NCBI GenBank assembly: GCA_965242925.1
Contig: CBDEUM010000039.1
Location: 96,001 to 160,000, forward strand
DNA: 64,000 bases
Reading direction: 5' to 3'
From: Roseibacillus sp.
GTDB taxonomy: Bacteria > Verrucomicrobiota > Verrucomicrobiia > Verrucomicrobiales > Akkermansiaceae
A program made the position numbers. Each line of letters starts with the position of its first letter. The first letter of the stretch is position 1. This document shows, piece after piece, positions 21,301 to 30,300 of the stretch.

Positions 21301-24300
21301 AAAGCAGACATGCCCCTGTACCGTGACCGCGGAAGCACCGTGCTCGCGCCCAATCCGTTTGTTCCATGCCAGTCTCCCGGTCCTGGCCTCCAGGCAACTC
21401 GCCTTCCCGCTGTCCGAGACCACCACGAAATACTTCCCGATGCTGGCGGGACTGGGCACGTAGGAAGGATCCTTCCGGGTGCGCCACCTGACGTGTGTCC
21501 TGGTCACATTCCCCGAGCCCCGCGGATCGATTGCCAGCATATGCCGCTGCGGAAATCCGCAGGTCATGAAGAGCAGGTCTCCATTGTAGACCAGGGAAGC
21601 CACGAACTGGTCAGTGGGGCCGTCGATCACCCAGTGTCGTTTCCCGGTATCGGGATCGTAGCTGGCCACCGTCTTGTCCCCCGCGAGAACCATCTGGTTA
21701 CGCCCCTCGATGGTCCAGATCACCGGGGTGCAGTAACTGCGGGTTCGGTTGGCCCGCCTGGTCTTCCAGACTTCCTTCCCACTCTTCTTCTCCAGGGCCA
21801 CGAGATAGGACTCCCCATCGTGATCCCCATTGATGATCACCTTGTCCTTCCAGAGGATGGGACTCGAGCAGTAGCCGTGAACACTCGAGAATACACCCGG
21901 GCGTTTCTCCCACCGTCTCTTGCCCGTCAGGCTGTAGGCCACCACGCACATGTCCTGTCCATCCAGGAAACTCACGTAAACCTGCTCTCCGTCCGTCGCA
22001 GGAGTGGAAGAGGCCAGGCTGTTGCGCCGGTGAATGCGTTCCTGCGGAGAGGTCAATACCGTCTCGGACCACTTCACCTTCCCGCTCCGGCGGTCCAGGC
22101 AGAGTAGTTGTCGCCTGTCCTCCACCGCGGTTACGACAAAGACGTCGTCCCTCCACACGATGGGCGAGGCGTGCCCCTTCCCCGGCAGGGGTGTCTTCCA
22201 GACCGTGTTCTTCTCCACGCTCCATTTCAAGGGCACCACCTTGTCCGGACTGGATCCGTCACCCCGGAGACCCCGCCACGACGGCCAGACATCCTCTGCC
22301 CCCGCAGGCAGGGTTGGTCCGAAAACCACGATGACAAGGGAAAGAATGAGCAGGGCCATCTTCATGGACTCATCCTACACTCTTACCCACGGCAGCTATC
22401 AAGCATCCCCGCCCCGGATTGGAAAAAAACTACCCTGCTGTCATTCCTCTACCCCAGCAGCCTCCCAAGTTCCTTCCCGGCCTCCTCCACCCAGGCGTTT
22501 CCAGGCAGGGCATAGGGCCGGAAGGTCTCCAGGGAGCCTTCGTGCTCATTATAGAAGAGAGCGCGGTGCATGCCGAGGTTGCTTGCCGCCGGACTGTCCA
22601 CCAGGGCGGCCGAATCGTTCTGGCTCATCTGGAAAATAACCCGCATCTCGAATTCGCTCAGCGCCTTCCGGCTCAGGAAACGGTTCACATTGTTGGAGGT
22701 ATCAACCGTTGCCATCACGTGCAGCCCGTACCCCGTCCCCTCCGTCACGATTTCGTTGAGCTGCGCCCCCGGGTTGGGACCCGCATCGTCGCTGTCGAAC
22801 GAAAAATCGAAGTCATCCTCGTGCTTGAGATTCTTGAACTTCTGCAGGTTGTGGATCAGCAGGAAGACCGGCGGGTCATTGGCGGCGATCTCCTCGTCCG
22901 CCGCCCTCCGTTTCATTTCCTCGCCCAGCTCGCCCATCACACGTGGCAGATCGTTGTTTTTGACGACCTCCACCTGGTGTGGCACCGCTTCCACCACTCT
23001 CTGCAGGAACGCGGACTCGGACGACCCGGGGGTGGTTCCGTCACATACAATGAACCGGATCCCACCCTTCGCAGACTGGGCGGAAAGGGAGACCAGCGAA
23101 ACGGCCAGCATGGCCAGGGCCGCCTCCTCCCGCTGGCCGATCACGATCAGGTTGTTCCCACTCTGGCGATGGAAGGTTGCCTCCGTTGGACCCTTGATGG
23201 AGTTGGGAGAACCCAGCCAGGACCGCTTGGAGAAAGAAGATTCGACCGCCTCGGCGTGCAGGAGTCCGTGGAGTAACCCGTTCTCGCCAACATCAGCCGG
23301 AGAGTTCCCCTCGAAGACAATGGGAGTGGAACAGTCATACGAGTTCTCCTCCGCGATCTTGAGGACATGCTGAAGAGACTGATCCCGCTCTTCATCCGGC
23401 AGCCAGACCACCTGGAACGGGCTGTTGGCTTCCAGGGCACCGGCGCTGTCGTTGTAGATCCCCTCCCCCGGGCGTGTCAGCATGCGTGGGGCAGGGTTGG
23501 AGTCATCCATGATGAGATAGGCATCCGACTCATTGCACTGAAGCGCCACCCGGATGACCATCTGACCCATCGTGGTACGGGCCATGCTGTAGGCGCCGCC
23601 CAGTGTCTGTGACCCAAGCAGCACATGAATGCCGAAGGCACGGCCCTGGCGCACAATGCGATCCAGAAGGACCGAGGCATCCTGTGCGATGCGATCGTCT
23701 TCCACGAAGAGTTCCTGGAACTCGTCGATAATCAGGAGGGATCGCGGCACCGACTCGCTCCCGCCCGCCCTCTTATAGCCAGCCACGTCCTGCACCCCCA
23801 GCTTGCGGAACATGTCCCCCCGCCGCTTCAATTCCTCGTCCACCCTCTTGAGCACGCTCAGGCCGAACTCCCGGTCACTCTCGATCGCCACCACCCGCGC
23901 GTGCGGCAGACGCGCCGCCGCGTAGCATTTGAATTCCACCCCCTTCTTGAAATCCACCAGGTAGAACTCCACCTGGTCGGGGTTGCACCAGAGCGAGAGA
24001 TTCGAAATGATCACATGAAAGAGCGTCGACTTACCCGATCCCGTTTTCCCCGCAAATAGAGCGTGCTGCCGGGTTCCCTTCCCGATCGCAAGATACTGCA
24101 GCTTGGTCGCTCCAGTTCTCCCGATGGGCACTCTCAACTCATTGGTGGTGTCGCTGCTCCAGAATTCACCCTCCTTCGGAATGACGTGCTGGAAAGGCAC
24201 TTCCACCCGGTTCGCATCGACGCTGCTGGCGCCGATCTTGTGAATGAACTCGATCGCAATCTCGGGATCGGGTGCGGGGTCGAACTCCAGCGGCGTCCCG

Positions 24301-27300: not shown

Positions 27301-30300
27301 GGACTGCAGGGACGATGCCTTCACCTGGAGTTCGTCATTGAATCGTTTCAGTTCCTTGGCGAACCGCCGGACTTCATCCGGATCCATTATTGCCTGGGAC
27401 ATAGCTGTGATCGAGTGCGGGAGGTGTTTGAAGTCTGGGATCACCGCCTGCGACCGGCAAGGACAGATCTCTACGTATATCAGTGAAACCCTGCTCCAGA
27501 GAGAAAGTTTCCTTAAAGATGCCCCTCCCCGGCAGGGCACAGAGTCACTGCCCGTCAGCTGCAAGGTAGGCCAGCAGGTTGGCCATCTCCTGCAGACTCA
27601 GTCCACTCTCAAGCCCGGTCGGCATGAGGGAACGATTCAGATTCACCAGTCTCGCGATCTCCTTCCGCGCGACCTTGCGTGAGGTGCCGTCAGCGAACCA
27701 GAGGGTCAACTCCCTGGCATCCTCCTCCGAGATCACACCCGCCAGCATTGCGCCATCCTGCAGGTGGACTTCCCACAGGGAATACTGCGGAGCAACTTCG
27801 CGGTCCGGGGCAAGCAGGTTTTCCAGCAGCATGGGGGCACCCTTGTTGCGAAGAGTCGCAAGATCCGGTCCCGCTCCATTCTGTCCGCTCTTGTGACAAA
27901 GGGCACAACGCTGCCCGAAGAGAACCTTCCCCTCCCTGCCGTCACCCTCCAGCCTGAGAGCCGGACGGTAATGCGCCGTGGCCTCATCCCGTGTCAGGAC
28001 TCTCTCCTCCCCGAAAATCGCTACCGCCCGCCCGCTCAATTTCTGATCGAGGTGGGAACGCAGACCCTGCTGTTGCTGGAACCCGACCTCGCTCGCTGCC
28101 ACCCGCTTCTCTTCGATGGCGGAGAGAACTGTCGCTGCCGACATCCTGGTCAGCAGACTCCCCCTCGCCCGCACCGGAATCTTTTCCCACTGGTCCAGGG
28201 CCTCCCCCTCCCACTCACTGGCTGGTCGGCGCAACAGCGCCGGGAAAGCGGAATTCTCCCCTTCACCCTCCACCACCCACGCCAACAGATTCCCCGCCCC
28301 GGTCTCAGGATGATTTGCCAGCACCCACCGGGCAGCGTCCCGTTGTTCCCCCGGCGGTTCTCCCTTGCCCATTTTCTCCCGCGCCTGGACAACCAACGCC
28401 CGGGCCATGGGATGATCACTGGCAACCCCGGCATCCCGCAGGAGCTTCACTGCCCGGGAAAAGTCATCCTGCCTGCCAACCAGTTCCGCCAGGACTCCAT
28501 GAATCCTGGCGGCAGCCAGAGTCACCCCTCTCATCCAGGGATCTTCCCGGGCCGCCTCCAGAAATCGCCCGAGCACTCCCACGGTCACCTCTTCCCCGGG
28601 ATCGAGCGTTCGCAGGACCGCTTCGAAGCGCACACCGTGATCAGCATCCCGCGACCAGGCCTCCAGGCGATCGGCGTCCACCTCCATCCACATCCGCACC
28701 AGCTGCTGGCGCACTTCGGGACTGGATTCACCCTCCCACAACTGAAGGGCCTCCTCTTCCGTCAGTGGCCGGAGCCGTGCCAGGAGCCGGAGCGCCTGCG
28801 TCCGCGCCCGCGGGTCCCGCATCCGGTCCCGTGCCAGCCCGGCCACCAAGTCCGCCGCGCCTTGTTCTTTCCGTTCCAGCAGGAGACGCATGGCCGTGTC
28901 GCGCTCCCAGCCGTTGCCGCTTTCCAGCAACTTCACCAGGCCGGCTACCGTCAACCGGGACCGCTCCGCAGGGGCCGTGGTCCTGAAGTCTTCCGGAACC
29001 ACCCGCCAGATCCGTCCCCGGTCCGTCCCGCTGTAGAGATCGAGGTGTTTCTTGATGGACTCCGGAATCGACCAGGGATGCTCGATGGTCTCACGGTACA
29101 TATCCACCACGTAGAGTGCCCCATCCGGACCATTGGCACACTGCACCGGGCGGAACCAGTTGTCACTGGAAGCCAGGAATTCCGACCTTTTCAGCAGATC
29201 CGGTCTCCGTGCCACCGGCTGCACCCGGTCCTTCGGAAACTCAATCAACTTCTGGTGCACCAGGTTGCTTCCCACGTCCCCTACGAAAACAGTCCCCTGC
29301 TGGTCCCTGTCGAAGGCATCTCCACGATAAACCGTCAATCCGCTCGCGGAGGTAAAGTATCCAGCCGCCCGACCTCCTCCCTCCACCGGCCCCATCACCC
29401 TGCCCTGCACCCGCCACCGGGTCCGCACCACCCGCCACGGTTCCACTCCGCTGATGCGGAAGACCTCCGCCGCCCCCCCGTCGACCGGAATCTCCACCAG
29501 GGGATGAGGCAACCCACCCATCCGATTCCAGGGCCACGAGTAGATCACCGCCATGAGATGCCGGCTGTTGCTGCAGACATAGCGTCGCCCGAAGTCATCG
29601 AAGGTCAGTCCGAACTGCGCCGTTCCCGACTCCGGGCGCAGGATGAGCGACTCCGGGTCGAAGGAAAAATCCGATCCGCGGAGATCCAGTCCCCCGCTCT
29701 TTTCCGACTCCATTCTTACAGTCCCCGCGTTCGAGGAGGTGGAGCCGTAAATCCGCCCGTCCGGTCCCCATTGCAGGTTGTTGACCAGGGCCTGCATGTT
29801 GAGGGGATCCTGGCCAGCGCCGAATCCGGTGAAGACGGTCCTGCGTTCCTCGGCCACTCCGTCCCCGTCATGGTCGCCAAGATAAAGAATGTCTGGCGAG
29901 GCCGTGACGAAGACGCCCCCCTTCCAGCAGACCACCCCGGTGGGCCACTTCAGATTGTCTGCAAATACAGTGGCATGTTCGTAGCGGCCATCCCGGTCAC
30001 GGTCCTCAAGAAGCCGGATCCGACCCAGTGCCTGCTCCCGGCGTTCGGGGTAACCCCGCATCTCAGTAACGAAGAGCCGCCCATCTTCATCGAAGGCGAT
30101 CGCCACCGGATCGACCACCTGCGGTTCGCAGGCAGCAACTTCAATCCGGAAGCCCGATGCGAGTTGGAATGAAGCAGCCGCAGCCGCTGGATCCAGAGGG
30201 GCAATACGCGGTAATTCGGCGGGGTCGGGCTCGGGTTCACCCGCGTCCACAACCCTGCCCGCAAGAAGCACAACCAGAACGAGAGAGGACCAGAATTTCG

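Follow-up and report, generated by a model that had tools for sequence, protein, structure and literature searches.

A conserved four-gene unit of a WXG100 protein, two small helical proteins and an FtsK-type ATPase in Roseibacillus sp., a possible cargo-free branch of type VII secretion

The minus strand of a 64,000-nt window of Roseibacillus sp. contig CBDEUM010000039.1 carries, as four adjacent genes, a WXG100 protein (W), a 189-aa hairpin protein (A), a 71-aa protein (B) and an FtsK-type ATPase (C). By analogy with described systems, the unit is tentatively read here as a chromosomal system without cargo, belonging to that branch of type VII secretion in which a solo WXG protein is combined with a three-domain FtsK ATPase, with export as its predicted function; its chances are put a little below even. 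This kind of system is already in print, in the passages compared here (Zhang et al., 2012, PMC3482391; Bell et al., 2024, PMC11090510). The new point is that the membrane hairpin of the ATPase has been lost twice, that 13 of 95 ATPases have no scored transmembrane segment, and that the single anchor-less genus examined shows no change in selection. The features, in positions along the window (the whole stretch analysed), are:

22449..26333, minus strand: C, FtsK/EssC-like ATPase of 1294 aa (Pfam FtsK_SpoIIIE)
23712..23738, minus strand: Walker B of the middle domain of C, D870-E871 (sequence, conserved)
24024..24050, minus strand: Walker A of the middle domain of C, residues 762-770, GKTGSGKST (conservation of 90% or more over 46 rows)
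25539..25685, minus strand: transmembrane hairpin of C, residues about 217-235 and 247-265 (hydropathy scan, alignment, tree)
26323..26538, minus strand: B, N-truncated protein of predicted WXG100 fold, 71 aa (AF2, profile, Foldseek, VIA)
26535..27104, minus strand: A, predicted two-helix hairpin with an acidic tail, 189 aa (AF2)
27130..27402, minus strand: W, WXG100 protein of HP0062 type, 90 aa (Pfam PF06013, above cut-off)

The genes are tightly packed: A and B are joined by a 4-nt overlap (ATGA) that recurs in 83 of 124 loci, and B and C by an overlap of 11 nt. Of 113 distinct loci that reach at least 5 kb further downstream, 105 keep the order W-A-B-C, a conservation far above chance, and eight break it. 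The survey's finding had described an invariant operon of Verrucomicrobiia. The order and the presence in that class stand, but invariance does not, since each of the three junctions is split in some genomes with the genes retained (the A-B junction in four), and the range extends outside Verrucomicrobiia, its Planctomycetota part resting on Atlas taxa. Among 151 genomes of the order, W occurs in 80, A in 81, B in 81 and C in 80, and all four together in 78, nearly always as single copies; 69 genomes lack the module. The survey's own counts, 25 of 61 genomes and 413 relatives, come from a different sample. That the unit is type VII-like and self-contained, as had been claimed, is now upheld by an all-against-all neighbour test, which found no further conserved neighbour beside the four genes, whether membrane or outer-membrane, mobility or defence. 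Against four close relatives, dN/dS is 0.011-0.019 for W and 0.039-0.053 for A, and 0.08-0.086 for B in three of the four pairs, the remaining pair being saturated. Contigs from four RNA libraries span parts of the operon, but they cover the flanks alike and so do not demonstrate operon transcription; promoter and terminator scans of the operon gave counts at chance level.

W, A and B are three helical hairpins free of hydrophobic segments. W matches Pfam WXG100 at E 9.2e-10, and its turn reads W43-x-D45 in place of W-x-G. Its closest solved sequence is H. pylori HP0062 (E 1.2e-7), a homodimer, which shares the W-x-D turn and the linkage to an FtsK-type ATPase. Identity across 97 rows is 56-94%, and the invariance of M1 and A4 in these rows fixes the start at 27402; the start previously given, 27387, is the internal Met6. 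A search of W for a clear C-terminal export motif (hydrophobic-xxx-D/E) found none. From analogy we infer that W is an EsxA-like core subunit.

The two partners had both been called WXG-like, a description that fits B and is weakly supported for A. B has no Pfam match (best E 0.11, below cut-off), yet profile and fold place it as an N-truncated member of the WXG100 superfamily. Tested against 38,864 decoy frames, its profile gives WXG proteins as much as 23.6 bits (E 5e-5), the best decoy reaching 8.4. The AF2 model (pLDDT 93) is a helix-turn-helix with Trp at the turn, and the top Foldseek and VIA rows are Esx/HP0062; among the Foldseek matches listed in ranks 1-21, 17 of 17 are Esx/WXG, each at E >0.2. 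The first helix is short, W21, W28-x-D30 and F36 are invariant, the C-terminus bears DCE, and a hydrophobic-xxx-acidic pattern at 55/59 is conserved at 97%/91% in 97 rows. Compared with small genes of toxin-type loci, B aligned only with the Deinococcus-type pair (hhalign E 1.9e-4); no alignment was obtained with the 76-aa protein of the Bell version (E 0.1, homology unsupported) or with the Helicobacter and Rhodococcus small genes (E 0.01-0.1 over all of these). Six weak B matches in genus g2 lie within frames of 520-540 aa and are spurious.

A is harder to place. Its AF2 model (mean pLDDT 89) predicts helices at residues 4-76 and 80-160, a folded part of about 160 residues followed by a low-confidence acidic tail, and its relatives form 2298 clusters at 50% identity. 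The tryptophans reported as invariant proved so in the W28-x-D30 of B, but in the 97-row alignment of A W53 is conserved at 90% and W110 at 98%, with W44 at 94%. A finds no match in Pfam (best E 0.011), a Pfam WXG/LXG search of 97 members returned zero, and profile similarity to WXG ends and toxin N-termini is weak: hhalign gives toxin probabilities of 24% and 12% (E 0.19 against decoys), and the Helicobacter toxin N-terminus is not matched (E 0.17). One signal is an end-to-end alignment over 136 columns with the N-terminus of a Rhodococcus helical-domain fusion gene (hhalign E 8e-4), against 0.036-0.19 for coiled-coil controls. Fold searches return generic coiled coils, none standing out (Foldseek E 0.03 at best, VIA Z no higher than 11.2), and rows hinting at a PspA/ESCRT-III link sit within this noise. 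A weak search for longer or fused forms found none in the top 8000 candidates 376-2000 aa long. As a lead to a longer form there is a 353-aa Imm33-like Planctomycetota cluster (score 0.82). An A-ATPase fusion suggested by 1549-aa open frames in genomes G353 and G356 was rejected after a check in G353, which showed A to stop at 176 aa. By weak homology, A is probably a carrier domain of the toxin kind that has no toxin attached.

C matches FtsK_SpoIIIE at E 1.2e-28, and among solved structures it lies closest to EccC/EssC (E 4e-29, versus 1e-7 for FtsK). A long N-terminal coiled-coil region with the transmembrane hairpin is followed by three ATPase-like domains; three stretches match TIGR03928 below its cut-off, and the two outer domains are delimited by inference. 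Intact Walker motifs, one conserved A/B pair, occur in the middle domain alone. The label of membrane ATPase suits the window's own C and the 82 of 95 ATPases of the comparison with at least one hydrophobic segment, but not the 13 of 95 in which the hydropathy scan scored zero transmembrane segments; alignment and tree place two separate deletions of the hairpin inside hairpin-bearing clades. In the anchor-less genus tested, purifying selection is unchanged, with a core dN/dS of 0.079 versus 0.049-0.145 in anchored genera. Of the 13 anchor-less loci, 8 encode, head to head with W, a two-helix membrane protein that could stand in for the lost anchor. On the ATPase tree, host families change label five times (minimum 3, shuffled mean 23.9), and some mixing between two families persists.

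Table 1 note 6 of Zhang et al. describes a solo WXG protein with a YueA-like ATPase as "mobile versions of T7SS", names verrucomicrobia and planctomycetes as hosts, and credits the ATPase with three HerA/FtsK domains of which the middle alone is active (PMC3482391). The ATPase layout and the stand-alone WXG beside it are the same here, but the unit has four genes, and that note gives no further partners. The nuclease-bearing version in the part of Bell et al. compared here (CoCoNuT/TerY-P EssC-like, PMC11090510) likewise has an ATPase of three domains, D2 alone being active, and it shares the long N-terminal coiled coil of the ATPase, a WXG100 protein, a motif-less WXG-like second protein and a coiled-coil protein. 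With such analogous partners in relatives, the novelty of the two partners and of the unit is lower than the survey's finding held. In that version, however, the coiled-coil protein carries a fused D-ExK nuclease and is followed by a DNA-mimic-like gene, and the ATPase lacks transmembrane helices and is flanked by vWA/kinase genes; the present unit has no nuclease, most of its ATPases have the hairpin, the flanking triad is absent (no conserved vWA, kinase or phosphatase neighbours), and A consists of no more than its hairpin and a short tail. A Helicobacter plasmid locus places after W a helical-domain WHH nuclease toxin with SMI1/KNR4 immunity, its ATPase being shorter (823 aa versus 1294 aa), and a D-ExK nuclease-like helical fusion follows W in Caballeronia and in two genomes of the phylum.

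T7SSb (EsxA with EssC, LXG-Lap1-Lap2), in the passages compared here, likewise pairs a small WXG hairpin with a long helical carrier and a multi-domain ATPase (PMC9600955, PMC13355648). B, with its short-then-long helices, resembles the short helper Lap1 by shape, and Lap proteins were not detected as secreted (PMC9600955). The survey's finding had taken the two partners as likely co-substrates, a role that this leaves hypothetical. EssC, by contrast, has four ATPase domains and depends on the Walker motifs of D1, and of the three domains of C the central one alone has an intact site. In T7SSb, EsxA is no binding partner of LXG complexes (PMC9600955, PMC13355648), and an A-B complex could accordingly form without W. 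EssB/YukC, EsaB/YukD and LXG (B. subtilis controls positive; EssA and EsaA outside the search) and EccB and EccD (C. glutamicum controls positive; MycP and EccE outside the search) were not found in the genome under study, which is 90% complete. T7SSc-j share the core of WXG100 and an FtsK-related ATPase but are confined to Bacillota or Actinomycetota, and the subtypes covered have four NTPase domains and a core of five or more genes (Garrett et al., 2024, PMC11217815); in the text of that paper compared here, the words "diderm" and "Helicobacter" are absent.

On the preferred export reading, modelled on T7SSb, W would be the EsxA-like subunit, A the carrier hairpin, nuclease-bearing in relatives and bare here, and B a Lap1-like targeting factor packing on A. 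The W/A/B bundle would dock on C, whose middle domain would hydrolyse ATP so that W and A leave the cytoplasm through the inner membrane for the periplasm or the cell surface, the bundle itself being the product outside that membrane. Since the hairpin of C can be lost, the conduit would come at least partly from elsewhere, either from the helical substrates themselves or from an unlinked protein. This reading draws on the co-retention of the four genes in the same 151 genomes, the likeness of B to WXG100/Lap1 and its ATGA coupling to A, the nearness of C to EccC/EssC rather than FtsK, the helical-domain toxins placed after W in related loci, and the Rhodococcus alignment of A. Against it stand the missing EssB, YukD, EccB, EccD and LXG and the lack of a conserved membrane neighbour, the 13 ATPases without a scored transmembrane segment and the undisturbed selection in the anchor-less genus tested, the weak homology of A to toxins with no longer forms found, the A-B splits in four genomes, and the want of a clear export motif in W.

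A rival account is a unit that exports nothing, in which C, cytoplasmic or tethered to the membrane, would assemble, hold or dismantle an intracellular W/A/B helical bundle or filament and act as a switch for stress, envelope or surveillance functions; in the nuclease-bearing relatives the same switch would free the nuclease inside the cell. The twofold deletion of the hairpin within hairpin-bearing clades and the equal dN/dS of the anchor-less genus tested and anchored genera favour such a switch, as do nuclease-linked ATPases likewise without a scored transmembrane segment, the failure of genome searches and the neighbour test to find channel genes, the high conservation of W with no varying cargo, and the remark of Bell et al. 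that "a different mechanism appears likely" (PMC11090510, in the part compared here). Yet most ATPases retain a hydrophobic segment, the two-helix membrane protein could replace the anchor, and the toxin-immunity pair of the Helicobacter locus is of the polymorphic kind that fits export; the switch is a possible but somewhat doubtful account. Slightly less probable again, and on the unlikely side, is a type VII-derived machine of free-living PVC bacteria that is toxin-free, inherited vertically and has no channel of its own, in which C would drive a W/A/B assembly that either supplies the conduit itself or has an intracellular role.

The unit might also serve unlinked effectors as a general machine for export or targeting, with W/A/B as adaptor for cargo encoded elsewhere in the genome. 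This would suit an A that has no cargo of its own and genes that persist where the operon is split, persistence that implies parts working in trans. It is improbable: the genome under study yielded no further WXG, A-like, B-like or toxin-carrier-like frame, and 80 of 81 genomes have one copy of A, the sole second match being partial and at a contig start. That the small genes are passengers of a mobile defence cassette or a DNA translocase unit, an idea for which the "mobile" label of Zhang et al. (PMC3482391, Table 1 note 6), matches of PADLOC models SspH and mad8 to the ATPase domain and a patchy presence (11 of 25 genomes of one genus) might speak, is very improbable, given a single-copy unit whose ATPase tree largely tracks host families, whose GC equals that of its flanks, whose W profile matched no viral contig, which has no conserved mobility or defence neighbour, whose PADLOC matches are confined to the shared ATPase domain and whose C is far nearer EccC than FtsK. 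Separately, toxin-type W gave one partial match in viral contigs.

The cargo-free type VII reading bears on the possible working of type VII systems in diderm cells of the LPS type; their Gram-negative branch is treated only in passing in the literature compared here. The variant is compact, highly conserved and toxin-free, which makes it a probe of the role of the WXG bundle when no toxin is carried. Its natural forms with and without the ATPase membrane hairpin make the need for the motor's own membrane domain directly testable, and, if the reading as a machine with no channel of its own is true, anchor-less Prosthecobacter-type strains would be the simplest natural test of a type VII motor apart from its membrane domain.

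Four closely packed genes, each single-copy in the source genome G000 (nearest named records, marine Roseibacillus MAGs), make up the module:

27402-27130, minus strand: W, WXG100 protein of 90 aa, above the Pfam WXG100 cut-off (E 9.2e-10)
27104-26535, minus strand: A, helical hairpin protein of 189 aa, no Pfam match
26538-26323, minus strand: B, 71 aa, no Pfam match
26333-22449, minus strand: C, ATPase of 1294 aa, FtsK_SpoIIIE match (E 1.2e-28)

The genes of A and B share ATGA, and those of B and C share 11 nt. The survey's finding had ended the unit at 27387, which is Met6 inside W; the true start is 27402, M1 and A4 being invariant in 97 rows. 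W, A and B are under purifying selection (dN/dS 0.011-0.086 against four close relatives, one B pair being saturated), and transcription of the module was not evident in RNA contigs. The nearly invariant D-C-E at the C-terminus of B (26326-26334 region; C69 99%) overlaps the start of the C gene. Elsewhere in the window, the minus-strand region 14353-17149 holds what we take to be a DUF6600-like repeat protein and, after it, long Ala/Arg/Gln/Glu-rich repeats split over several frames; this region is unrelated to the module.

The four-gene module is real and well conserved, and belongs to an already known kind of system. Removal of 8 duplicates and a divergent second system (L090) from 145 examined loci left 136. 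The order W-A-B-C is kept in 105 of the 113 loci having at least 5 kb downstream, with A after W in 131 of 134 evaluable loci and B in its place in 125 of 132. The traced exceptions, locus L182 aside, are splits in which the genes were not lost: W stands apart from A-B-C in genome G362, W-A from B-C in G368 and G335 (B is on another contig also in G365 and G341), and W-A-B from C in G312 and G332. "Invariant operon", as the unit had been called, is therefore too strong, each of the three junctions being split in some genomes. The further claim that no other neighbour is conserved was borne out by all-against-all clustering of 1754 called genes from 137 loci, which found no fifth member; the next commonest families, seen in 17, 11, 11 and 11 loci, have no set place. 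The gene caller was crude, recovering the four core genes in 118-132 loci, which suffices to reveal a conserved neighbour.

Sutcliffe is said to have reported WXG loci in Verrucomicrobia in 2011. In a sample of 151 genomes from the order, W is present in 80, A in 81 and B in 81; for B, six weak matches lying in long frames of the genus g2 are not counted. C is present in 80, with a further match that is divergent, and all four occur together in 78. Partial sets are confined to four genomes: the contig stops inside C in G362, A begins 65 nt from a contig end in G386, and G365 and G402 are fragmented assemblies (600 and 1080 contigs). W was not found among the 31 genomes of g2. Phylum-wide, it occurs in 14 of 401 genomes; G487 carries a diverged copy of all four genes, G169 and G289 have W-A-B with no ATPase adjoining, and G160 and G260 hold toxin-type loci. 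After the diverged W-A-B of G169 and G289 (L205, L206), a Ser/Thr kinase-like gene stands in the ATPase's place. In the ESM Atlas, the largest A cluster (2908 members) is mostly Planctomycetota, as are two of the best three B clusters. Inheritance is mostly vertical with some mixing, because the ATPase tree (51 rows, quick IQ-TREE search) tracks host families, needing 5 label changes where 3 is the minimum and shuffled labels need 23.9 on average.

The nearest solved sequence to W is H. pylori HP0062 (E 1.2e-7), a WXG100 protein that forms homodimers, has W-R-D at its turn and is linked to an FtsK-type gene (PMC3397514). B, predicted to fold into two helices, the first short (3-27) and the second long and kinked (31-70), is an N-truncated WXG100 whose W28-x-D30 is equivalent to W43-x-D45 of W. 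Three comparisons, taken together, lead to this assignment. WXG proteins are the top non-members of the B profile, reaching 23.6 bits (E 5e-5) against 8.4 bits for the best of 38,864 decoy frames; among the Foldseek rows of ranks 1-21, the 17 that are listed all belong to Esx/WXG proteins, every one at E >0.2; and the VIA top two, EsxEF (Z 8.4) and HP0062 residues 16-84 (Z 8.1), lie within the helical-protein noise band. W21, W28, D30 and F36 of B are invariant. Both partners had been proposed to be WXG-like with invariant Trp motifs, which holds for B; for A a WXG relation is no more than possible, and its Trp residues are not strictly invariant. Neither the partners nor W contain a hydrophobic segment.

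A, whose family spans 2298 clusters, is predicted to fold as one long hairpin of residues 4-76 and 80-160, followed by a tail of low confidence; Y153 is invariant, and W44, W53 and W110 are conserved at 94%, 90% and 98%. Fold and family searches of A returned generic coiled coils only. Loci with related W and C, on plasmid and genome, carry a helical-domain fusion among their small genes. The Helicobacter sp. locus pairs a WHH nuclease with SMI1/KNR4 immunity; a 436-aa helical and nuclease-like protein lies between vWA genes in Caballeronia, G160, G260 and most of 63 metagenome loci; Rhodococcus has a 314-aa fusion, whose C-terminal part has no Pfam match and by eye is presumably ParB-like; Deinococcus has long helical genes and no evident toxin domain. 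In hhalign, end-to-end alignments of A were obtained to the N-terminal part of the Rhodococcus fusion (E 8e-4 over 136 columns) and to the 436-aa type (E 0.0026 over 126 columns), at probabilities of 24% and 12%; coiled-coil controls score E 0.036-0.19. WXG or locus proteins fill the top four non-member ranks of the A profile decoy test, the Rhodococcus protein at E 0.19; the Helicobacter toxin gave no match to A, and no longer form of A was found among the 8000 best candidates of 376-2000 aa. Its gene position counts for the carrier reading, and A is probably the carrier domain of the toxin-bearing relatives, without cargo.

Several features of these relatives are recorded alongside. The vWA-W-436 aa-110 aa-76 aa-ATPase islands (L208:7713-14459, L209:5272-11372, L216-L276) are very uniform across metagenomes, their nuclease-like C-terminus being fixed, not that of polymorphic toxins, and their carrier has a Cys pair at the predicted hairpin tip. 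In the Helicobacter plasmid, a gene of Hsp70/DnaK type, spread over two neighbouring frames (L016:6215-8739), lies upstream of W, a layout that matches a DnaK-WXG cluster given for H. pylori in PMC4978471. Second, divergent Deinococcus-type systems at L090 (G337:C49, about 15400-20900) and L279 (G407:C4, about 77000-82000) comprise an ATPase, W, a second WXG-like gene, a long helical gene and a 150-aa helical gene; the long gene of L090 has an extra N-terminal domain of HNH-like look, possibly cargo ahead of the helical domain.

In C, a single Walker A/B pair is conserved (762-770, 870-871); the regions on either side are conserved and ATPase-like but without the motifs. Among solved proteins, C comes closest to EccC/EssC (E 4e-29 to 6e-20), well ahead of FtsK (1e-7), and its matches to the NCBIfam EccC/EssC models fall below their cut-offs. 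The description "membrane ATPase" suits the window's C, with hydrophobic helices at about 217-235 and 247-265, and the 82 of 95 long ATPases having at least one segment (two in 74, one or three in 8), but not the 13 with none. Six of the 13 were aligned, and in these the hairpin is cleanly deleted from the coiled coil. A 49-row tree places the anchor-less ATPases in a clade of 12 (support 1.0), which includes three records under the name Prosthecobacter, and on a further branch apart from it; both positions fall within anchored forms. Median dN/dS in anchor-less genus g159 (6 genomes; W 0.068, A 0.20, B 0.17, ATPase core 0.079) lies inside the range of seven anchored genera, which argues that the module works without the hairpin; by this sequence measure, the hairpin is dispensable. 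In 8 of the 13 anchor-less loci, W lies head to head with a gene whose product has two hydrophobic helices and matches no Pfam family:

L177:9080-9790, minus strand: 237-aa protein, homologues in g159, duplicated in two

In the order sample of 151 genomes it is confined to 8 of g159, where 8 of the 11 genomes that carry the module have it and none of the 14 that do not. Its absence from five anchor-less loci, and a distribution that kinship might account for, leave it as a lead, either a candidate replacement anchor or plain synteny. A divergent locus in G105, within the otherwise module-free g2 (L280:5737-9802, minus strand), holds two WXG-like genes, an FtsK-type ATPase of 836 aa and a 316-aa protein that combines a coiled coil with a multi-pass membrane part; this separate membrane gene may bear on the channel question.

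How the parts would work together is a tentative matter. The module could well be a cargo-free type VII-type exporter, a reading that we place just short of probable, in which W would be the EsxA-like subunit, A the carrier and B a factor like Lap1, the T7SSb targeting factor of LXG substrates; C, with its single active site, would move W and A across the inner membrane, and the conduit would not be supplied by C alone. EssB, YukD, EccB, EccD and LXG gave no match in G000 (90% complete; controls positive). In Lap1 proteins, which were not found to be secreted, the first helix is short and the C-terminus carries FxxxD (PMC9600955); B has the same shape, but its hydrophobic-xxx-acidic pattern is looser and common in helices. 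EsxA forms homodimers and does not bind LXG complexes (PMC13355648), so by analogy W may act separately from A-B. The summed helix lengths of W and B approximate that of A, and would fit a putative bundle with W and B end to end along A. The main rival, an intracellular ATPase-bundle switch with no export, is somewhat doubtful. Related systems are on record: a solo WXG protein with an ATPase of three HerA/FtsK domains, of which the middle one alone is active, in verrucomicrobia and planctomycetes among others (Zhang et al. 2012, PMC3482391); a nuclease-bearing version with a second WXG-like protein and a coiled-coil fusion, lacking a transmembrane domain (Bell et al. 2024, PMC11090510); and WxG plus FtsK as a minimal type VII set in H. 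pylori (PMC4978471). Garrett et al. 2024 (PMC11217815) treat Gram-positive subtypes only. Within the literature covered, main texts of papers mostly outside subscription, no account was found of the toxin-free four-gene form or of hairpin loss. Its toxin-free design, strict co-retention and dispensable anchor make the module a good test system.
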